A model generated the notes under the pieces. That model saw nothing but the letters and a program-made list of their open reading frames with translations. It was not told the DNA's origin and ran no database searches. Source: Candidatus Hydrothermarchaeales archaeon (lineage in GTDB: Archaea; Hydrothermarchaeota; Hydrothermarchaeia; Hydrothermarchaeales; JAZGAD01). Taken from it: DNA of 23,819 nucleotides. Made by a program: the position numbers and the translations under genes. Each line of letters starts with the position of its first letter. Within the stretch, counting starts at the first letter, position 1. The DNA lies in the NCBI GenBank assembly GCA_036444275.1, contig JAZGAD010000013.1, forward strand, positions 1 through 23,819, in the 5' to 3' direction. Below, piece after piece: positions 5,870-22,706 of this stretch.

Positions 5870-6052
5870 GGTTTTGCTGATTTTCAGATTGGTGTTAAAC
5901 GGTTCTGTTAAATTTAAGGTTGATGTTCAACACGGTTGGTAAGAGTTCAGTTGGTGGTTCTGATAAGGTTTATTAAGAGCGGTAATGGATTCTTTGTGTA
6001 GAGGAAAAATAAAGGGAGTACCAGAAAAGTGGGGTCTATCAGAGATGGGTTA

Positions 6053-6547
6053 ATGAAGATAAGTATTTCCCTAACTCTTTTTATATTGTACGCTTTTGTT
6101 CAAGCAAAATATCTTCATACTGAATTTAAGTATTGGTATTCCCCTTTTTTGTATATAATAATACCAATTCTTCCATGGTCGAACAAAATTTTTTATTATA
6201 CGCCTGGGTTTTTAAAAGAGTTTTTTAAAGAGGAAGGCTTAACTAGAAGATCAACCATTTTAGGTACTTTTTGGGGGTTTATTAGTTTCTGGTTAATTCC
6301 AAGGACTATTAGTGGTGGAACGACATTAGAGTTTTGGATTCAAAAATTTCCTGATATTGTACAAATTCCTTTATCTCTACCATCTTATGTCCTGTTCAAA
6401 GTTGGTTTAATGGACTTTTTCCAGGGTGGTTGTACCGATGCATGTTTTCATATGATAATACTGATACCAGTATTCATATTAATTTCAGCCATGTTAGGTG
6501 CCTCTATAGGTTACGGAATTTCTAAAATTTACCTCAAGGTGAAATAG
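6053..6547 (+). CDS. Hypothetical multi-pass membrane protein (AT-rich)
   Basis: ORF with several hydrophobic segments. ATG at 6053 preferred over GTG at 6029. Confidence 0.6.
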   Translation: MKISISLTLFILYAFVQAKYLHTEFKYWYSPFLYIIIPILPWSNKIFYYTPGFLKEFFKEEGLTRRSTILGTFWGFISFWLIPRTISGGTTLEFWIQKFPDIVQIPLSLPSYVLFKVGLMDFFQGGCTDACFHMIILIPVFILISAMLGASIGYGISKIYLKVK

Positions 6548-6860
6548 ATGAAGATATGGAAGAAGTGGGCTATAATAGGTGGAGTTTGGGGGTTTAGTTA
6601 GTTTTTTTGGCAGTTTTGCCATAGGATGTGGAGAGGAACGTAATTTGTTATTTCATGAAAAAATTATATTCCTTCCTATGGAAGTTGTAGTTATTTTTGG
6701 TGAAACACTCTTTAGGCTGGGAATCATTAATTTTCTCAGAACTATTTCTAGACTTCTTGCGTATCTTCTTTTCCCTATTCTTAATCCGATCACACTTTCT
6801 ATCCTTTTTGGTGTTGGCATAGGCATAATTATTGGCTCTTTGATTGAAAAATACAAGTAA
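6548..6860 (+). pseudogene. Membrane protein paralogous to the C-terminal half of the upstream gene, with a +1 frameshift near 6588-6598
   Basis: ATG at 6548 directly follows the upstream stop and reads MKIWKKWAIIGGVWGFS-stop. Removing one base near the G5 run (6588-6592) joins it to the 6579..6860 frame (LVSFFGSFAIG...). Confidence 0.55.
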
Positions 6861-6875
6861 AAGAAAAAATTAGAG

Positions 6876-6895
6876 GTAGGAGTCTAAACTCCTAT
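6876..6895. terminator. Hairpin between convergent genes
   Basis: TAGGAGT-ctaa-ACTCCTA, a 7-bp stem, preceded by an A-run (U-run on the minus strand). Confidence 0.35.
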
Positions 6896-7011
6896 TCTCC
6901 AACAATCTCCTAGCTAACTTCTCCTTATCACCGTTCCTAGCCCTCATGCTCTGCCTTATCAACTCCTCCCCTTTCTTTTCACCAAGACCAGGGTATACCA
7001 ACTTCCCACGC

Positions 7012-8706: not shown

Positions 8707-10560
8707 ATGAGAATTCTGCTCATTCATGCTGATCATATAGGGTATAAGGTGAAAAGCAAGACTCGGGTAGCTGAAGAGATTTCCGACGAACTTAAGGCGC
8801 AGGAGGCAGACGAAGCCCTTGTTGTATTCACGGCAGTCGAGGCAAGCGATGAGAGCGACTCTGGAAAGGCGGTGAATGAAGCATGCAGCGAGATAGAAAA
8901 GGTATTCAAGAATGTCAAAGCCGAGAGCATCTTCCTATATCCATATGCTCACTTGAGCTCGTCACTCGCAAAGCCCCAGGCAGCGGCGAAAATCTTAAAA
9001 GATATGGAGAAAAAACTAGGAGAAAAGTACCCGGTGAAGCGTGCGCCCTTTGGCTATTACAAGGCATTCGAATTGAGCTGCAAGGGACATCCGCTGGCCG
9101 AGCTGTCGAGGCAAATAACGGTTGGGGGGGAGAAGGAGAAAGTATCTGAGGCGGTTGAAGCTGAGAAGAAGCTGAAGTCCGAGTGGTTCATTCTGCATGA
9201 GGGGAAGCTCATCCCGGCTGCAAAATTTGACTTTACGAATTATCCGAGCTTGAAGACCTTCTATAACTACGAGACTACAGGCACTAGGGCTATGCAGAGG
9301 GAGCCGCCCCACATAAAGCTCATGAAGGAGCATGAGTTCGTGGACTATGAGCCGGGCTCGGATCAGGGCAATTTGAGGTGGTATCCAAAAGGAGAGCTAA
9401 TCAAGAAACTCCTTGAAGAACACGTTTCCAATATCCTGATTGATAACGGAGCAATGGAAGTGGAGACGCCTATAATGTACGATTTCCATCATCCGCAGCT
9501 GCGGAAGTATCTGGACCGCTTCCCGGCTCGGCAGTATGTAGTGAAATCTGATGATAAAGAGTACTTTCTGCGTTTCGCAGCCTGCTTTGGGCAGTACCTC
9601 ATGAAGCACGACATGAACATGTCCTATAGGCATTTGCCCATTAAACTCTACGAGCTCACTCACTACTCTTTCAGGCGGGAGCAGAGCGGGGAACTAGCCG
9701 GGCTTAAGAGGCTGCGGAGCTTCACTATGCCTGATATGCATACGCTCTGCAGGGACGTTGATCAAGCCAAGAAGGAATTCATAGAGCAGTACAAACTGAG
9801 CATGCAGTGGATGCGCGATATAGGCTTGCAGTATGACGTAGCCATGCGCTTTGTGAAGGACTTCTACACCGAGAACGAGGCCTTCATTAGGGAGCTTGCA
9901 GATATCGTTGGGAAACCTATCCTCGTCGAGATGTGGGAGCAGCGCTTTTTCTACTTCATTATGAAATTCGAATTCAGCATCAACGACGCCCTGGAGAAGG
10001 CTGCCACGTTATCTACTGTGCAGATAGACGTTGAGAACGCTGAGAGATTCGGCATAACTTATACCGCTACGGACGGCTCTAAGAAGCATCCCCTGTTGCT
10101 GCACGCCAGTATCTCTGGAGGCATAGACAGGAACCTCTACGCCATCCTGGAGCATGAATGGATGAAGGCACAGCGGGGCGAGAAACCATCTCTTCCTTTG
10201 TGGCTATCTCCGACGCAGGTACGGATTGTCCCTGTGTCAGACGAGCAGCTTGCGGCATGCAAGTCCCTGTTAAAAGATTTAGAAGATGCCAAGATAAGGG
10301 TCGACCTAGATGACGAAAACCTGACCCTCGAGAAGAAGATAAGGCGGGCCGAGAAGGAGTGGATACCGTACATTGTGGTCCTAGGCAGGAAAGAGTTGGA
10401 GAGCGGTGGACTCTCGGTAAGGATTCGGGAAGAGAAGGGAAAGGTAGAAAAGATGAATAAGGAGGAGCTCGTCCGCAGAATCAAAGATGCAACTGCGGGA
10501 AAGCCCTTCAGGAAGCTTCCACTGCCAAGCATGCTGTCTAAGCGGCCTACGTTCAGATAA
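8707..10560 (+). CDS. thrS: Threonine--tRNA ligase, archaeal type with N-terminal editing domain
   Basis: MRILLIHAD, YPYAHLSS, CKGHPLAELSR, LRFAACFG, FRREQSGEL, FTMPDMH and LPLWLSPTQVR. Confidence 0.97.
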   Translation: MRILLIHADHIGYKVKSKTRVAEEISDELKAQEADEALVVFTAVEASDESDSGKAVNEACSEIEKVFKNVKAESIFLYPYAHLSSSLAKPQAAAKILKDMEKKLGEKYPVKRAPFGYYKAFELSCKGHPLAELSRQITVGGEKEKVSEAVEAEKKLKSEWFILHEGKLIPAAKFDFTNYPSLKTFYNYETTGTRAMQREPPHIKLMKEHEFVDYEPGSDQGNLRWYPKGELIKKLLEEHVSNILIDNGAMEVETPIMYDFHHPQLRKYLDRFPARQYVVKSDDKEYFLRFAACFGQYLMKHDMNMSYRHLPIKLYELTHYSFRREQSGELAGLKRLRSFTMPDMHTLCRDVDQAKKEFIEQYKLSMQWMRDIGLQYDVAMRFVKDFYTENEAFIRELADIVGKPILVEMWEQRFFYFIMKFEFSINDALEKAATLSTVQIDVENAERFGITYTATDGSKKHPLLLHASISGGIDRNLYAILEHEWMKAQRGEKPSLPLWLSPTQVRIVPVSDEQLAACKSLLKDLEDAKIRVDLDDENLTLEKKIRRAEKEWIPYIVVLGRKELESGGLSVRIREEKGKVEKMNKEELVRRIKDATAGKPFRKLPLPSMLSKRPTFR

Positions 10561-10690
10561 CGTTTTGTATACCTTCGAGATGCTCCACCCTACCCTGTCG
10601 ATAATCTTCCCTCGCCTTTTTAATAGACTTTAAAATTATGGAAAAAGAACACACACATCGTATTGATAAATTTCACTCTACTTAGGATAT

Positions 10691-11116
10691 TTACAATAAT
10701 TTCGGCAATACTGCATTTACTATCCCAAAAACGCATAAAATTACTACCCATTGGCTAGGCACTAGAGTGAATAACCATAGCGTTTTTACATTTGTCGCAC
10801 CGTCAGCACCTTTGGGTTTTTCTAGAGGAATAAAAAATATCGCAAAAGCAGCAAAGACCAATGCAGCGAGAAGCATGATTAGAGAAGATTTTGGTAAAAT
10901 GTCTATACCTTTGTCTATGGTAAAGCCAAGGAAGACTATGATTGCTGCTAAAAAATAGGAATTGTAAGTATTCATCGCGCGAATATCATTAATACACTCA
11001 TCAAAAGATCTACTATCAGTTTTAATTTTTTTAATCCAATATCGATAGGTCCAACTAGCAGAAAATATACAAGTGCCGATTGCAATGGTGCTTAAAATCA
11101 TATCTATCGAACTCAT
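10691..11116 (-). CDS. Hypothetical four-TM membrane protein (AT-rich, cassette-like)
   Basis: 141-aa ORF with four hydrophobic segments; GAGGA Shine-Dalgarno-like sequence upstream. Confidence 0.65.
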   Translation of the reverse strand: MSSIDMILSTIAIGTCIFSASWTYRYWIKKIKTDSRSFDECINDIRAMNTYNSYFLAAIIVFLGFTIDKGIDILPKSSLIMLLAALVFAAFAIFFIPLEKPKGADGATNVKTLWLFTLVPSQWVVILCVFGIVNAVLPKLL

Positions 11117-11152
11117 ATTTTCATCCTCTACAGACTCGTAATATTTATGGTC

Positions 11153-11464
11153 TTATTCCTTAAACATCTGCAGGTCAAGTAATCTGGCACTATGAATAAC
11201 CCGCATTATGATTACCTTTGAGCTTTGAATGCGAAAAATGGTTCTGTAATTGGCATAGATAAGATGACGATATTCTTGCCCTAATTCCGTTGCTTCGGGT
11301 ATAATTGGACAGCGCATAGGAAAATTCTCTAACGAATCAATCTGGTGCTCGATCTCTTCAACCCATTTGCTAGCAGCATTTGGGTTATCTTGGGAAATAT
11401 ATTCAACGATCGATGTTATATCGGACTCAGCTACTGCGGTAATTTCAACATGAAACTTACGCAC
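11153..11464 (-). CDS. RelE/ParE family toxin
   Basis: VEITAVAESDI..I.EYISQDNPNAA, LENFPMRC, YRTIFRI and IMRVIHSAR. Overlaps the antitoxin stop. Confidence 0.88.
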   Translation of the reverse strand: MRKFHVEITAVAESDITSIVEYISQDNPNAASKWVEEIEHQIDSLENFPMRCPIIPEATELGQEYRHLIYANYRTIFRIQSSKVIIMRVIHSARLLDLQMFKE

Positions 11465-11729
11465 TGCCTTTAAGCTCCTTTAGAAAGTCTCGCGCCGGAC
11501 GAGTCCGCCCTTCTTTTACATCTGCTTCAGCTTCAGCTAATAAAACACCAAGATTTAATGCCTTCAATTTTTTCTCAAAAACTGCCGCATCAAGCAGTAC
11601 GACGTCTGGCTTTCCGTTAACGGTGACAACAATAGGACGGCCAGTACTGTGTAACTGCTCAAAAATTTCACGTGTCTTTTTCTTTAACTCGGAAACTGAT
11701 TTGATATCTTCAGTAATGCTTACAGGCAT
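11457..11729 (-). CDS. Phd/YefM family antitoxin
   Basis: IKSVSELKK...GRPIVVTVNGKPDVVLLD is the Phd fold signature; C-terminal AEADVKEGR. Confidence 0.9.
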   Translation of the reverse strand: MPVSITEDIKSVSELKKKTREIFEQLHSTGRPIVVTVNGKPDVVLLDAAVFEKKLKALNLGVLLAEAEADVKEGRTRPARDFLKELKGSA

Positions 11730-11760
11730 TTTATTTCACATCCTTTTTAATACCCTATTT

Positions 11761-11783
11761 AATACTGATTATAATGCAGTATT
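11761..11783 (-). promoter_or_regulatory. Palindromic operator enclosing TATAAT, upstream of the Phd/ParE pair
   Basis: AATACTG-attataatg-CAGTATT; further TAATAC half-sites lie nearer the start codon. Confidence 0.6.
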
Positions 11784-11941
11784 CCTTCACAAAGACAAAC
11801 AATTTAAAAAATGGGTCCGATTTCATGAATTTTATACTTTTTGTAAGGAGAGGATTTCAGCTTTCCTTCTCCAATCTTTATTATCAAATTTAGATACAGA
11901 TAAATGTTTTGAAATTCTTAAGGCGTCCCGAAGTCGATTGC

Positions 11942-12035
11942 GTATAACGTTTTCGAGCGTATCTGAAGTCCCGAGCGAAGCGAGGGATTTGGGCGGAGGT
12001 GCGAAGCACCGTAACCAGATACCCACCTGTTATCT
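11942..12035 (-). mobile_element. attC-like integron recombination site (94 bp)
   Basis: Minus strand reads AGATAAC (R'')-aggtg-GGTATCTG...CAGATACG...GTTATAC (R'), with two internal GCGAAGC mini-hairpins. A GC-rich island in AT-rich DNA, 31 bp after the stop of the 12067..12474 ORF. Confidence 0.75.
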
Positions 12036-12066
12036 GCTGTATGACGCATCCTACATTAATATCTCT

Positions 12067-12474
12067 TCAATCATCAGATACATAAATGTAATCTGTTGCC
12101 TTCAAATCTGTTCGAGCAAATCCTATGTCACGTCTAATTTCAACTAGCAATTCACCTACAAGCTTTTGATCTTCCAGTGAGAGTTTTCTTGAAGTTTTCA
12201 GTTTTTCAACTAATTTATTTGCCGACCTTATAACATTATCAGGTGCATAAAGCCAAATGAATGAATACTCAAAGAAGAATAGATCTATATGCTCACTTCC
12301 TCCCTCTCGCAAACTCTTCAAACAGAGGATAAGATTGCGATAATGTTCTCGTTTGTCTTTGAATATTCTCGTCTCAGACTCACTCTTCTTATCTAAATAG
12401 TATTTGACAAGGTAACCACCAATTCCTCCAAAGAAAAGAGTGAACAACGGAATTACAATCTGCTTCCAATCCAT
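12067..12474 (-). CDS. Hypothetical protein with an N-terminal TM helix, integron-cassette ORF
   Basis: 135 aa with WLYAPDNVI and LLVEIRRDIG; GGGGTG Shine-Dalgarno-like sequence. Fills the space between the attI-like and attC-like sites. Confidence 0.75.
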   Translation of the reverse strand: MDWKQIVIPLFTLFFGGIGGYLVKYYLDKKSESETRIFKDKREHYRNLILCLKSLREGGSEHIDLFFFEYSFIWLYAPDNVIRSANKLVEKLKTSRKLSLEDQKLVGELLVEIRRDIGFARTDLKATDYIYVSDD

Positions 12475-12512
12475 GGTATTTACACCCCTATGTACGATAC
12501 GTCAATTTTTGT

Positions 12513-12590
12513 GTCATATGGCAGATAACTCGTTCATATACGAAATTCGTGTTATCTCTCATTTTGGCAGTATATACGAACTTTTCGATT
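12513..12590 (-). mobile_element. attI-like site / 5' boundary of the cassette
   Basis: Minus strand: TTCGTATAT...GATAAC-acgaat-TTCGTATAT-gaacga-GTTATCTGCCATATGAC, that is an inverted core pair plus a 9-bp direct repeat. Confidence 0.5.
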
Positions 12591-12775
12591 ATTTTCTTTT
12601 ATCGCACCTTCATCATCAAATCAAGCGAGCTCTTAATTCCTCCTTAAATCTTTCATAGCGATATTAGTATAAATTTCTGCCTTTTGGTAACGGACGACGA
12701 AGCATAGCATGATGTAAAACGAAATTGGTTAACTTTTGATTAAATTTAAATACTATTGATGATAATGTTGGCTGC

Positions 12776-13240
12776 ATGAAGCTTACTCACCTCACTGAAA
12801 AAGGGGTAAGGATGGTAGAGATATCTGGGAAAGGGGATATCAAAAGGAAAGCAAAGGCCAGCGGCAAGATCAGACTACGAAAAGAGACCATCGCCAGAAT
12901 AAACGCTGGGGAAGTAGAGAAGGGAAATGTCCTCACCACGGCACAGATAGCAGCTACGCTGGCGGTTAAGAAGACCCCAGAACTGATACCCCTCTGCCAT
13001 CCTCTCCAGATAACCGGGGTAGACGTGCAATTCAACGTTGGAGAAGATGAGATAGAGACGACAGTCGAGGTTACATGCATCGCTAAAACCGGCGTTGAGA
13101 TGGAAGCCATAACCGGCGTTGCAACTGCCCTCTTAACTATCTGGGACATGGTTAAGTCTGTAGAGAAAGACGAGGCTGGACAGTATCCAATAACTGAGAT
13201 ATCTGAGATAAGGGTCCTGGAGAAGGTCAAGGGTGAATGA
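12776..13240 (+). CDS. moaC: Cyclic pyranopterin monophosphate synthase MoaC
   Basis: LTHL...[26 protein letters not shown] and TIWDMVKS. Confidence 0.96.
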
Positions 13241-17081: not shown

Positions 17082-17381
17082 ATGCCCACGGTATCCGTTA
17101 GACTGGATGAAGGCACTCTCAAGGATCTGCAATTCCTCATGAAGGACTATAAGGCTGATAGATCAGAAGTCCTGAGAAGGCTTCTAGACAGAGGTTTAAA
17201 ACAGGCAAAAATAGAGAAAGTCTTAGGGCTACTGCGTGAACACAAGATCTCCATCGGGAAGGCAGCAAAACTCGCGGGAATTACGATTTACGAGATGATC
17301 GAGCTCTGCAAGGAGCACGAGATCCACATAGGCTACACGAAGGAAGACCTGTATCGGGATTTGGAGAGATTCAGGATTTAA
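17082..17381 (+). CDS. UPF0175-family antitoxin with an N-terminal ribbon-helix-helix
   Basis: TVSVRLD...DRSEVLRRLL (RHH), then ISIGKAAKLAGITIYEMIEL (UPF0175). Confidence 0.85.
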   Translation: MPTVSVRLDEGTLKDLQFLMKDYKADRSEVLRRLLDRGLKQAKIEKVLGLLREHKISIGKAAKLAGITIYEMIELCKEHEIHIGYTKEDLYRDLERFRI

Positions 17382-17393
17382 GAGGGTGAGTCT

Positions 17394-17900
17394 ATAAAGG
17401 CTGTCTTGAACTCAACTCCATTGATCTACCTCGGGAAGGTCGGGAAGCTGGAGCTTTTGAAAGATTACGACGAGGTTTTTATTTCTCCAACGGTCTATGA
17501 GGAGACCGTCAGCAAAGGCATTGAGAAAGGCTTCCTCGACGCGAAGATTATTCAAAAGGCCGTCGATGGGGGCATGGTTAAATTAAAAAAACTTAATACA
17601 GAGCAGAGCAAAGAAGCGCTGGAACTAACGAAATTCGCAGGTATAGAGCTCGGCGAGGCTGAGGCGATCATACTTGCAAAGGACTTGAAAGCAGAGCTAC
17701 TGATAGACGACGTTGTCGCCCATGGCGTTGGGAGGACCTTTGGGATGGAACCCTTATGGACCACTAGCTATATCTTAAAGTTAGTCAGTAAAGAGAGGCT
17801 CACCAAAACTGGGGCTAGAGAGATCATAGAAAAACTCGTAGAAGCCGGCTATCGAATAAGCGAAGACGTACTTGTAGAAGTCCTACGAAGACTAGGTTGA
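17394..17900 (+). CDS. DUF3368-type PIN-domain toxin (VapC-like); start uncertain (ATA at 17394 or TTG at 17406)
   Basis: KAVLNSTPLIYL, VYEE, LGEAEAIILA, LLIDD and GYRIS. Paired with the UPF0175 gene. Confidence 0.85.
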   Translation: MKAVLNSTPLIYLGKVGKLELLKDYDEVFISPTVYEETVSKGIEKGFLDAKIIQKAVDGGMVKLKKLNTEQSKEALELTKFAGIELGEAEAIILAKDLKAELLIDDVVAHGVGRTFGMEPLWTTSYILKLVSKERLTKTGAREIIEKLVEAGYRISEDVLVEVLRRLG

Positions 17901-19980: not shown

Positions 19981-21036
19981 CTAACTACCGTATTTCCTCG
20001 CAGCTTCTACCAGTGCATGGATATTTTCAAAGGGCGTTCCAGAATGTAGACCACAGCTACTGGAGACAATGTAGCCTTTTTTTCCAGCTCCCTGGATGCA
20101 CTCCTTGACCTTTGAATCTATATCCTCCTTGCTTCCCTTGAATATTAATTCTACGGAGACATTCCCAAATAATGCAACCTTGCTCCCTACTTTTTCCCGA
20201 GCTTGCTCTAGCGGGACACTCTCGTCTATGCTCAGACACCTAGCCCCAGTAGTAGCGAGTTCCCCAAGTATCTCTGACGTGTCTCCGCATATGTGGATTA
20301 TTACGCTACCGCCATACTTCCCAAGAGCAGAGCACACCTTCTTCTCATAGGGATATGCGAACTCACGATAATGCCTGTGGGAGATAACCTGGCATGCAGC
20401 CGATGGGTCTTCCATCATTATCCCATGTGTACCAGTATCTATCTGCCTCTTGCCAACTTCTATCGCTATGTCAGCCATGAAGTCCAACAACTTGTGGGCA
20501 TCCCTAGGCGAGGTCACCAGATCAAACATAAAGTTCTCCATGCCACGCATCCACTCAGCAGCATAGTGAAAGGGAGCCGGAACCTTGCTGCAGATATAGA
20601 CTCTATCTTTCGTAAGTTCTAAAAGCGTAGCTAGCGGCTGCATTCGCTCGGCACTAAAGTCAGGCACCTCTAATTCGTCTAGGGTAGAATAGTCTTTCAG
20701 CGCTGGTTCAACTACAGCAGGTCCACCTTCCAGAGGTATCTTGAGCTTTGGGCCCAGCTCAGTTGGGAGTACTACGTAGCCATCTTTGGTTTCCATACTA
20801 CGCTTCTCCTTCTCGGTCACGCCCTGAATTGGCTGGTGATTAAAGATCCAATCATATTTGTACTTCTCCAGGGCTGCAAGCTGTCCCTTTACGTAGAGCT
20901 CGTTGTCAGTCACGTATTCCCACGGCTTAACTCCTAAAACCTTGGAGGCATGAGGCACATTCACCATAGGTGCAACCGGTACCAAGTCAGGCTCTTGTAG
21001 GTCCATTGCAGCCTGAAAACGCTCCCTCGAATTCAT
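19981..21036 (-). CDS. MtaA/CmuA (UroD superfamily) Zn-dependent methylcobamide methyltransferase
   Basis: MNSRERF...PDLVPVAP, the HICG Zn motif, GNV and SSSCG. Start set at ATG 21036, 4 bp after the corrinoid gene stop. Confidence 0.85.
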   Translation of the reverse strand: MNSRERFQAAMDLQEPDLVPVAPMVNVPHASKVLGVKPWEYVTDNELYVKGQLAALEKYKYDWIFNHQPIQGVTEKEKRSMETKDGYVVLPTELGPKLKIPLEGGPAVVEPALKDYSTLDELEVPDFSAERMQPLATLLELTKDRVYICSKVPAPFHYAAEWMRGMENFMFDLVTSPRDAHKLLDFMADIAIEVGKRQIDTGTHGIMMEDPSAACQVISHRHYREFAYPYEKKVCSALGKYGGSVIIHICGDTSEILGELATTGARCLSIDESVPLEQAREKVGSKVALFGNVSVELIFKGSKEDIDSKVKECIQGAGKKGYIVSSSCGLHSGTPFENIHALVEAARKYGS

Positions 21037-21040
21037 ATTT

Positions 21041-21694
21041 TCATCTGCCTTTTGAGTGCATAGCCTGCAACTCACGCATAATCTCCTCGAACAAACGGAC
21101 TGCCTTCCCAGCATCGCTGGCATAGCCATTGGCTCCTATTCTCTTGCAATAGGGATCAGAAACTGCTGCACCACCGATGATGAATTTCACACTATCCTTC
21201 AAACCCTGTCTCTCAAACTCCTCGATTACTCCCTGCATCTTATCCATAGTGGTAGACATCATTGCCGAAAGAGCAACGACATCGGGCTTTATCTCTTTCA
21301 CCTGCTCCACAAAAGCTTTAACAGGTACATCCCTACCTAGGTTGTGGACCTCGAAGCCGGCGCCCTCCAAGAACATGGCTACCAAATTCTTGCCTATATC
21401 ATGAACGTCCCCCTCAACTGTGCCGATCACTACCCTGCCACGGTTGTCGTCGTCGCTGGTGAAAAGTCTAGGACGCAGCAACTCTAGTGCCTTCTGCATT
21501 GTATGGGCAGACAGCAATACTTCAGGCACAAAATACTCCCTGTTTTCGTATTTATTTCCAACTTCTTCCATACCGCTAGTCAGCTCTTGCAGGACCTCGT
21601 CAGCCTCACGCGTCTCCAAGGCATCCGCTACGAGTTTTGAGATTCTGGAAATATCTCCCTTTATTATAGCCTCCTCTATTGCATCAACTCTCAT
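21041..21694 (-). CDS. Corrinoid (B12-binding) methyltransferase protein, MtbC/MttC-like
   Basis: Cap domain with EYFVPEVLLSA; GTVEGDVHDIGKNLV (DxHxxG), LSAMM and IIGGA. Confidence 0.95.
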   Translation of the reverse strand: MRVDAIEEAIIKGDISRISKLVADALETREADEVLQELTSGMEEVGNKYENREYFVPEVLLSAHTMQKALELLRPRLFTSDDDNRGRVVIGTVEGDVHDIGKNLVAMFLEGAGFEVHNLGRDVPVKAFVEQVKEIKPDVVALSAMMSTTMDKMQGVIEEFERQGLKDSVKFIIGGAAVSDPYCKRIGANGYASDAGKAVRLFEEIMRELQAMHSKGR

Positions 21695-22706
21695 TAGCTA
21701 CCCTTACCATCTCTTTTATGTTATCTCCATTTGCATTGGCCGGTACCACACAACCAGAGCTAAGAACGACTTTATCCTGAAGTCTAACGACAGCCTCAGA
21801 TGCCCTTCTAACTTCTTCTTTGCTCCCGTCTACCAGCAATGCTGGAGAGACATTTCCCCAAACAGCTGTATGCTCATGCACCTGGACAATGTCCATAACT
21901 TCGTCCACGCTTATACAATCTGCACCTGTGGCAATCATATCTCCTAATATTTGCTTCACATCACCGCATATATGGAAGATTACAGGCACTTGGATCTCAT
22001 CTATCAGGGCTTTTTCATAAGGCAGAGCAAACTTTCGATAATCCCCGGGGGAGATTACGCTTCCAGAGGCAGCCGGGTCCTCGACGTAAAGAGCGTCTGC
22101 TCCAGCATCGACTTGGGCTTTCGCATATTGAGTACAGTACTCCAAAGCAAAGTCTAGGAATTCATATGCAGAGGCTTCATCGGTCTTCATAGCAAGTAGG
22201 AATGACTCTAAGTCGTATAGAAAGGTCGAAGCAAGGGTGAAGGGACAACGCATGTTGCCGCATACAAAGTCCTCTTCCTGCATTAGGCGGATAGGTGACA
22301 TACGCTCCTCGTCTGGCACTGGAATCTTGAGTTCTTTAAGTTCTTTACTAGAGGATACAGCGCTCTTCACCAACTGCGGCTGTCCCTGCGGGAAGACCTT
22401 GTATTTCACGCCTAGCTCTAGTGTAAGGATAGCATGATCGCTAGAGAACTCTACTCCCTCCCTTTCTTTTCCTGTTACTGCGCCAAAGAATTGATGAGCC
22501 CACACCCAATCGTAGCCGTAATATTCCCGTGCATGAATCTGTGCTTGGGCATATCTCTCGCTGTCAAGGAGATATTCGAGAGGTTTAATTCCAGAAAGCT
22601 TGGAGGAATGGCCGAGGTTTATAAGTGGTGCAACTGGAACGCGGTCTGTGACCTTGCCAAAAATTGACTCCAGAACGATCATGTCTTTATGTCTATGAAA
22701 GAACAT
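21684..22706 (-). CDS. Second MtaA/CmuA (UroD superfamily) methyltransferase
   Basis: DRVPVAP, CPFTLA, EDPAASGSVISP, FHICGD, WGNVSP and SSGC. Overlaps the corrinoid gene start by 11 bp. Confidence 0.85.
   Translation of the reverse strand: MFFHRHKDMIVLESIFGKVTDRVPVAPLINLGHSSKLSGIKPLEYLLDSERYAQAQIHAREYYGYDWVWAHQFFGAVTGKEREGVEFSSDHAILTLELGVKYKVFPQGQPQLVKSAVSSSKELKELKIPVPDEERMSPIRLMQEEDFVCGNMRCPFTLASTFLYDLESFLLAMKTDEASAYEFLDFALEYCTQYAKAQVDAGADALYVEDPAASGSVISPGDYRKFALPYEKALIDEIQVPVIFHICGDVKQILGDMIATGADCISVDEVMDIVQVHEHTAVWGNVSPALLVDGSKEEVRRASEAVVRLQDKVVLSSGCVVPANANGDNIKEMVRVANES

Follow-up and report, generated by a model that had tools for sequence, protein, structure and literature searches.

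The interval between thrS and moaC in Candidatus Hydrothermarchaeales archaeon raises the question of whether integron cassettes have been captured at this site. The interval lies on contig JAZGAD010000013.1 of assembly GCA_036444275.1, of which positions 1 to 23,819 of the forward strand were analyzed (23,819 nucleotides (nt) in all, called the window below). An earlier note, made from the letters alone, had proposed a real cassette-capture locus, that is, a block of short co-oriented open reading frames (ORFs) with a 94-bp attC-like palindrome, whose integrase was lost or acts in trans. In our analysis, an integron cassette array is not demonstrated, and the palindrome is attC-like in outline yet fails the tests for an attC. 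We favor, with a probability of about 0.55, an acquired AT-rich toxin-antitoxin islet that holds a solitary palindromic element, which would be either a degenerate or non-canonical attC or a repeat resembling miniature inverted-repeat transposable elements (MITEs) or repetitive extragenic palindromes (REPs). The claim of a cassette block is not supported, as the window presents one candidate site, neither an integron integrase (IntI) nor an attI was found within it, and our proxy attC models were silent.

The islet between thrS and moaC

The composition of the interval differs from that of its surroundings, the G+C content in windows of 400 nt being 0.345–0.412 over 10601–12800, 0.515–0.520 before and 0.495 after. 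The islet is placed at 10621..12775 (no strand assigned; ~2.15–2.2 kb, with G+C lower than the ~0.50–0.52 of the flanks). Its left edge would lie after a GC-rich stretch followed by T5 at ~10608–10620, and its right edge would coincide with the start of moaC. On the left, thrS (8707..10560, plus strand) encodes an archaeal-type threonyl-tRNA synthetase with the archaea-specific editing domain (Pfam tRNA-Thr_ED, 7.9e-50) in addition to tRNA-synt_2b and HGTP_anticodon, and its C-terminal PTFR followed by the stop codon is also found in a related locus (L003). On the right, moaC (12776..13240, plus strand; Pfam MoaC, 5.4e-49) is followed by a gene with a MoCF_biosynth domain (moaB-like) and by moaA (Radical_SAM/Mob_synth_C). 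All four islet ORFs are co-oriented on the minus strand between these two plus-strand genes, as the earlier note had described for this AT-rich block.

The best characterized part of the cargo is a type II toxin-antitoxin pair. The Phd/YefM-family antitoxin gene (11457..11729, minus strand; Pfam PhdYeFM_antitox 1.1e-13, 51.2 bits against a cut-off of 29.8; NCBIfam phd_fam 1.4e-8) lies upstream of the ParE/RelE-family toxin gene (11153..11464, minus strand; Pfam ParE_toxin 1.6e-15, 57.8 bits against a cut-off of 23), the two genes sharing 8 nt, as expected of a Phd/YefM-ParE pair. Both domains thus score above the curated Pfam cut-offs. Type II pairs of this family are known to penalize the loss of the DNA that carries them. 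The ParE of the islet is 33% identical to that of a Vibrio integron cassette (L055). In the same Vibrio phage record, at 23843–28053, an integron integrase gene directly follows thrS-infC-rpmI-rplT; the thrS neighborhood shared by this integrase and the window is most likely a coincidence.

The toxin-antitoxin pair is accompanied by two small membrane-protein genes. ORF141 (10691..11116, minus strand), separated from parE by 36 nt, encodes a predicted multi-pass membrane protein of 141 amino acids (aa). It has no family in Pfam, PADLOC or PHROGs; in NCBIfam it shows only a sub-threshold chance match to MPN396 (E 0.006, 14.5 bits against a cut-off of 1100), no plasmid homologue was found, and its Atlas neighbors (best 0.90) are leads only. 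ORF135 (12067..12474, minus strand; 135 aa) has an N-terminal membrane helix and a stop codon 337 nt from the phd start. It is conserved in 41 homologue clusters but has no Pfam family, and neither ORF135 nor ORF141 retrieved anything in PADLOC, NCBIfam, PHROGs or PDB. A Pfam scan of 31 ORFs in the window, each of at least 90 aa, revealed no recombinase, integrase or transposase domain, in line with the earlier statement that the window lacks an integrase.

Protein searches with the flanking genes bear on how the islet came to lie there. The match lists of MoaC and ThrS have 12 contig sizes in common, and contigs of equal size in the two lists would be the same contigs. The short contigs that would thus carry both genes include those of 2,964, 5,829, 6,152 and 7,902 nt. 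On the contig of 2,964 nt (P0059, P0180), thrS and moaC account for 2,340 nt, so that no more than 624 nt remain and a 2.2-kb block cannot fit between them. Therefore, thrS and moaC are probably adjacent in relatives and the block is probably an insertion, although the contigs were equated by size and not by sequence, which tells against this part of our reading. The comparison of the interval across strains that the earlier note had called for was made at the level of this adjacency in relatives, and it speaks for seemingly adjacent genes and an inserted block. In a one-genome-per-species collection, the nearest ThrS sequences (68–72% identity) belong to Hydrothermarchaeota-type metagenome-assembled genomes (MAGs), MoaC occurs in none of the 54 ThrS-bearing loci, and the loci L001–L003 are not syntenic downstream of thrS.

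Taken in this light, the ~2.15-kb islet would have been horizontally acquired and inserted between the conserved neighbors thrS and moaC, bringing the Phd/YefM-ParE pair and the two small membrane-protein genes as its cargo. The toxin-antitoxin pair would penalize the loss of the islet, ORF135 may have arrived together with the ~95-nt element and its 63-nt conserved core as a mobile unit, and the islet is probably now static, because no recombinase is encoded in the window.

The palindrome downstream of ORF135

The palindrome on which the cassette claim was built is present as described. It occupies 11942..12035 (unstranded), with TAAC at 11945–11948, GTTA at 12029–12032, the inner boxes GTATCTG (11959–11965) and CAGATAC (12016–12022), and two small hairpins between these boxes that make up the branched tip. 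On the minus strand, that of the ORFs, it reads AGATAAC, 6 nt, GTATCTG, the two hairpins, CAGATAC, 10 nt and GTTATAC. The outer R''/R'-like boxes AGATAAC/GTTATAC are complementary at 5 of 7 positions and retain the AAC...GTT conserved in attC sites, GTTATAC being also the R' box of a Shewanella attC (L057, 35285–35362). The stop codon of ORF135 is at 12067–12069 and the R''-like box begins at 12035, which leaves a gap of 31 nt in the polarity of the ORF, the position expected of an attC.

Several tests against shuffled sequence were applied to this outline. The window has a single instance of the layout in which TAAC...GTTA encloses complementary inner boxes of 7 nt at a distance of up to 12 nt; among shuffled sequences, at least one instance of this attC-like layout turned up in 4.6% of 500 islands and in 21.5% of 200 windows. 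The R'' side of the palindrome is moreover complementary to the sequence upstream of ORF135. This inverted match, given as 15/17 by the earlier note (12029–12045 against 12513–12529), was confirmed and extends to 17/20, with one arm downstream of ORF135 overlapping the R''-like box (12029..12048, unstranded) and the other upstream of the gene (12510..12529, unstranded). A second match to the fixed 17-mer was seen in 0 of 100 shuffles, and the arm pair in 0 of 300 in a region-pair test, whereas 19 of 200 dinucleotide-shuffled islands contained an inverted repeat as good as 17/20 or better whose arms lay no more than 1 kb apart. Both the inverted repeat and the box layout are therefore marginal once corrected for looking elsewhere. 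The repeat had been explained as what is expected when a circular cassette is opened at G|TT; at 17/20 it exceeds the 7-bp R box of the integron model, so that it is not specifically what such an opening predicts.

Folding as single-stranded DNA (ssDNA), proposed earlier for the plus strand, did not help the attC interpretation. The 94- and 126-nt stretches are no more stable than shuffles (z 0.03, 0.19; −0.01, −0.05; 124 and 134 of 300 shuffles equaled or surpassed their stability). For thirty true attCs folded in the same way, the median z is −2.14 and the highest value +0.20; given this range, the test discriminates poorly and receives little weight here, and fold stability was dropped as a discriminator of attCs.

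Other resemblances were tried and rejected. The 8-mer GTTATCTG has 5 copies in the window against 0.77 expected, while shuffled windows average 87.5 different 8-mers with at least 5 copies; its copy at 10554–10561 corresponds to the last thrS codons TTC AGA TAA (F, R, stop) plus C. The likeness of the palindrome region to the thrS-side junction was equaled in 24 of 300 shuffles, and that of the ATAACGTTTT shared by these two regions in 12 of 100; neither is significant.

The covariance-model test was carried out with two attC models, R1 and R2, built and validated here as proxies for IntegronFinder's own model and HattCI. The accessions for true attCs were taken from a paper on integrons in phage genomes (PMC9892861), and 30 attCs were extracted from one array each of Vibrio and Shewanella, the latter with a second attC cluster, and from two class 1 arrays. 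R1 comprises 22 Vibrio and Shewanella attCs, and R2 adds the class 1 sites to this set. In the R1 structure, the fraction of paired cells is 82.3%, a value reached by 0 of 500 shuffles, and all 7 L-helix pairs change on both sides. R1 recovers 7 of 10 held-out class 1 attCs plus three unlisted Shewanella sites, and has no match in 122 kb outside the arrays, and R2 has 0 matches in 812 kb of unrelated MAG loci. With filters off, R2 finds three sites in the actinobacterial Tetrasphaera phage TJE1 (20.1, 23.8 and 24.9 bits), each just after an ORF, and one in the Bacteroidota phage Polaribacter phage P12002L (16.3 bits). These matches were equated with published attC sites by their position after ORFs only. 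Under default filters R2 finds only one of these phage sites, and the window was therefore scanned with filters off. As reported in the same paper, attC clusters of at least two sites are present in each of TJE1 and P12002L, and 5 of 6 sites tested from these and a third phage recombined with IntI1 (PMC9892861).

Under these settings, the palindrome at 11942–12035 has no R1 or R2 match at E up to 10. Taken alone, 11900–12080 yields at best an alignment of 19 nt with 1.5 bits, the ORF141/thrS junction reaches at most 3.6 bits, and the whole window gives no attC-grade match with either model. The absence of a covariance-model hit was the first outcome that the earlier note had named as refuting it, and with the proxy models this is what we obtained (<2 bits at the palindrome). 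The failure of the models follows from the architecture of the palindrome: its spacers are 6 and 10 nt (2 and 6 with extended pairing) against 5/6 or 3/3 in the controls, its L stem is without a bulge where the controls have two bulged bases on the L'' side, and its surplus bases lie on the R'/L' side in the ORF orientation, opposite to the control attCs. In a review, strand choice is attributed to three features, namely an unpaired spacer, extrahelical bases and a variable tip (PMC8946536). The silence of the models is real evidence against an attC, but it is not decisive.

The only weak match in the window falls on another palindrome, of 35 nt, upstream of ORF135 (12523..12557, unstranded; AGATAAC-N21-GTTATCT), where the 7-bp ends alone are aligned (R1 9.4 bits, E 2.4; R2 9.2 bits, E 2.5). 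It is an R-box-like pair only and shorter than any attC. A 16-nt hairpin of two inverted R-box-like heptamers at the edge of a phage attC cluster (L060, 306–321), which scores 14.1 bits with the attC model, resembles it.

A further pair of repeats brings in the possibility that the sites belong to a system acting on double-stranded DNA. A 21-bp palindrome, CAGATAC-N6-GTTATCTG (12016..12036, unstranded), has a second copy at 12075–12095, inside the 3' end of ORF135. The pattern CAGATAC-N6-GTWATCTG has these 2 sites in the window, 59 nt apart, against 0.05 expected, in a count whose pattern was defined after seeing both copies. The two copies fold as small hairpins (z −3.33 and −2.25), and in the folds the R'' and L'' boxes pair locally with each other. 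These features suggest double-strand protein-binding sites, that is, operators or core-type recombination sites. The copy at 12075–12095 encodes the conserved C-terminal TDYIYV of ORF135 and may therefore be a coding-sequence coincidence; alternatively, it would be the relic of a duplicated gene end.

On this basis, the repeats could be sites of another recombinase or transposase, either as a 501-bp unit carrying ORF135 between 20-bp terminal inverted repeats (12029–12529) or as core-type sites, comparable to Xer/dif modules, with two inverted arms of 7–8 bp and a 6-bp spacer. The 17/20 inverted repeat does flank ORF135 exactly, the 21-bp pattern is repeated at short distance, and dif sites are themselves inverted arms around a 6-bp spacer (PMC2958812). 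Nevertheless, there is no target-site duplication at 12028/12530, the arms reach 7–8 bp where dif has 11 bp, the spacer in the site upstream of ORF135 is 21 nt and not 6, and the second 21-bp copy belongs to a coding sequence conserved at the protein level. As the inverted repeat is in addition statistically marginal and the window encodes no such enzyme, we consider this explanation very unlikely.

A conserved core and the spread of ORF135

The element is set apart from a chance palindrome by its core. A stretch of 63 nt (11958..12020, unstranded) consists of a 7-bp closing stem and two hairpins whose tips are GCGAAGC on the plus strand (11975–11981 and 12001–12007); its three-way fold has z values of −1.02 and −1.27. 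A 64-residue minus-strand reading across the element was searched against 1.84 billion representative proteins and gave three matches at E ≤1e-3, two of which are repetitive proteins with 41% identity. In the other, P0282 (E 3e-4), 19 of 21 residues are identical over exactly nt 12020 to 11958, a span that covers both inner boxes and everything between them, and the sequences diverge on both sides. Of the two residues that differ, one would map to a hairpin loop and the other to a site where a G-T pair can still form. The recurrence of the 63-nt core in P0282 is evidence that the palindrome is not a product of chance. Downstream of the match, P0282 contains a Cu_amine_oxidN1 domain (4.4e-12), a mostly bacterial domain and a context unrelated to the islet.

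Searches of the window, of 58 loci and of plasmids and phages revealed no further copy of the core, so that the one other copy is known only by its translated match. Matches to GTATCTG...CAGATAC in L045 and L053 were unrelated by eye, and Rfam returned no relevant family at gathering or permissive thresholds.

The recurrence of the core also bears on whether the palindromes are ordinary regulatory features, such as 3' untranslated stem-loops, a processing signal of the ORF135 mRNA or operators (of Phd-ParE, for example), with a coincidental likeness to attC. The element sits between the stop codon of ORF135 and the start of phd, the 21-bp palindromes stand in tandem and have identical half-sites, as is typical of operators, and the marginal chance tests leave room for coincidence. 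In contrast, a core that reappears beside an unrelated Cu_amine_oxidN1 gene points to a portable element, the distance of 210–320 nt upstream of the phd start codon is large for an archaeal promoter or operator, and the Rfam search lent this explanation nothing even at permissive thresholds. We therefore regard it as unlikely.

The gene next to the element is itself widespread. The 41 homologue clusters of ORF135 come from archaeal and bacterial records, with identities of 94, 93, 90, 89, 88, 87 and 86% down to 47%, and the family is well conserved (alignment A5). One of the several homologues with 86–94% identity is named from a Hydrothermarchaeota MAG, whereas the nearest non-self ThrS is only 77% identical; the bacterial members (Ignavibacteriae, Geminicoccaceae) have 53–57% identity. 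None of the 41 contig sizes of ORF135 matches any in the ThrS or MoaC lists. A MoaC that is 96% identical, on a 751-nt contig, indicates that close relatives exist in fragmentary assemblies, and some near-identical copies of ORF135 may simply come from these. The Atlas neighbors of ORF135 are bacterial, distant homologues (30–33% identity) occur in 15 records of Leptospira plasmids, and a blastn search of the island against plasmids and phages gave no match.

Several observations on the element weigh against the islet reading and in favor of a genuine integron cassette, in which ORF135 and the palindrome would form a unit whose single non-canonical attC escapes models trained on bacteria, either the rest of a decayed attC cluster or an orphan at a secondary site, with IntI acting in trans or since lost. 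The AAC/GTT cores stand at the right ends, with inner boxes that pair perfectly over 7 bp; the attC-like site follows the ORF135 stop at the distance and in the polarity given above; and the inverted repeat begins exactly at GTT/AAC, and the would-be cassette starts with a sequence complementary to the R'' side. P0282 shows the core conserved in a second context; the residues flanking this match (L-T before, R-Y after) could be encoded by a TAAC located 5 nt ahead of the left box and a GTTAY located 8 nt past the right one, a protein-level observation that serves as a lead only. The branched tip also finds parallels among true attCs. GCTTCGC, as the hairpin motif reads on the ORF strand, recurs at their tips with the same polarity: 10 of its 27 occurrences in L055–L057 lie inside model-confirmed attCs (6/11 in L057, 3/12 in L056, 1/4 in L055), always on the top strand and in three unrelated types (class 1, Shewanella, Vibrio), which places the stable GCGAAGC mini-hairpin on the recombined bottom strand. 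Such tips are carried by the aadA1, psp and dfrA attCs and by six Shewanella attCs, and the islet element would have two on its bottom strand; DNA mini-hairpins of the sequence GCGNAGC are reported to be extraordinarily stable (PMC13037366). The models, moreover, were trained only on bacterial sites, and roughly one true attC in every three or four escapes them (3 of the 10 class 1 sites, and 1 of 2 tested in P12002L). Finally, a clustered-attC array is reported in a Hydrothermarchaeota MAG, and Phd/ParE cassettes in archaeal arrays (PMC9668308), which agrees with the earlier note's statement that integrase-less attC clusters are reported in archaeal MAGs; the cargo of the reported Hydrothermarchaeota cluster differs (TIR-like and caspase domains; PMC9668308).

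Against the genuine cassette stand the silence of R1 and R2 under settings that recover out-of-clade attCs at 16–25 bits, the unequal spacers without extrahelical bases and with the surplus on the R'/L' side, and the local pairing of the R'' and L'' boxes. The site is single, with no attC at the other ORF junctions and no IntI or attI in the window, and the 17/20 inverted repeat is absent from all 30 control attCs, in which pairing stops at ~7 bp. The genuine cassette is thus a possible but doubtful explanation. A bolder variant, which we propose only tentatively and consider improbable, is that the element represents a divergent attC class, with unequal spacers, no bulges and a double mini-hairpin tip, that covariance models miss. 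It would mark ORF135 as a single cassette that crossed domains and was deposited by an in-trans integrase at a non-attI site beside thrS, and its core would be shared with a probably bacterial context. One part of the integron reading is supported, namely a block of foreign composition and co-oriented ORFs, with Phd/ParE cargo and a conserved element of attC-like outline 31 nt after a stop codon, while the cassette array is not.

The window at large and comparison with known systems

Other parts of the window contain comparable small features. A second AT-rich islet (5870–7010, G+C 0.32–0.37) carries two plus-strand ORFs, at 6029–6547 and 6579–6860, with no family in Pfam, PADLOC, NCBIfam or PHROGs. 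At 2330–2900, two small minus-strand ORFs overlap by 8 nt (G+C ~0.40), one of them with a weak, below-cut-off match to 'putative addiction module antidote' (3.1e-5); the two could form a further toxin-antitoxin pair. A UPF0175 gene and a DUF3368 gene lie side by side at 17082–17900, a pairing often annotated as a toxin-antitoxin-like module. At 19981–22706, two genes of the URO-D family flank a gene for a B12-binding corrinoid protein, which together look like a methyltransferase system, unusual in this lineage.

If the element were a working attC, it would mark an orphan cassette in an archaeal chromosome beside a core gene and an attC type missed by present detectors, and archaeal integron surveys would undercount. 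Even so, archaeal attC clusters are already reported, one of them in Hydrothermarchaeota (PMC9668308). On present evidence, the locus is a routine small acquired toxin-antitoxin islet, and its useful residue is the compact conserved palindromic element.

With respect to known systems, the islet is close to integron attCs and to attC clusters that have no integron integrase (CALINs), including those of archaeal MAGs (Ghaly et al., 2022; PMC9668308), with which it shares short co-oriented ORFs, toxin-antitoxin cargo and a phylum with a reported cluster. That survey recognized an archaeal integron by the presence of IntI, of two or more attCs within 4 kb, or of both, and excluded singletons (PMC9668308). 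IntegronFinder 2 is described as having the same default (at least two attCs, 4 kb), although single attCs can be real (PMC9024848). In contrast, the islet has one candidate site, recognized by eye, and neither IntI nor attI in the window, and thus falls outside this definition. The palindrome itself resembles an attC in its position 3' of an ORF, its AAC...GTT outer cores, its complementary inner boxes and its branched variable tip with top-strand GCTTCGC. It differs in having no covariance score, spacers of 6/10 instead of ~5/6, no extrahelical bases, and an inverted repeat of 17/20 that continues beyond the R box, where the pairing of the 30 controls ends at ~7 bp.

Modules bounded by dif are described in the Acinetobacter plasmid literature, and the islet shares with Xer/dif sites the two inverted half-sites around a 6-bp spacer and a small gene bracketed by inverted sites. 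Unlike dif, which is described as two inverted 11-bp arms around this spacer (PMC2958812), it has arms of 7–8 bp and a second bracket with a different spacer, and there is no Xer gene in the window, so that its membership in this group is not supported. In comparison with MITE- or REP-like repeats, only one further copy was detected, by translation, and no target-site duplication was seen. Nevertheless, the element is like them a short GC-rich palindrome with terminal inverted repeats of 7–11 bp and internal hairpins, and its core is conserved in an unrelated context with differing flanks. Finally, small islets stabilized by type II Phd/YefM-ParE pairs may be marked by an integrase, a tRNA target or direct repeats at the insertion, none of which is seen here. 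The islet nevertheless agrees with them in its foreign composition, its insertion between housekeeping genes, its overlapping antitoxin and toxin genes and its cargo without assigned function.

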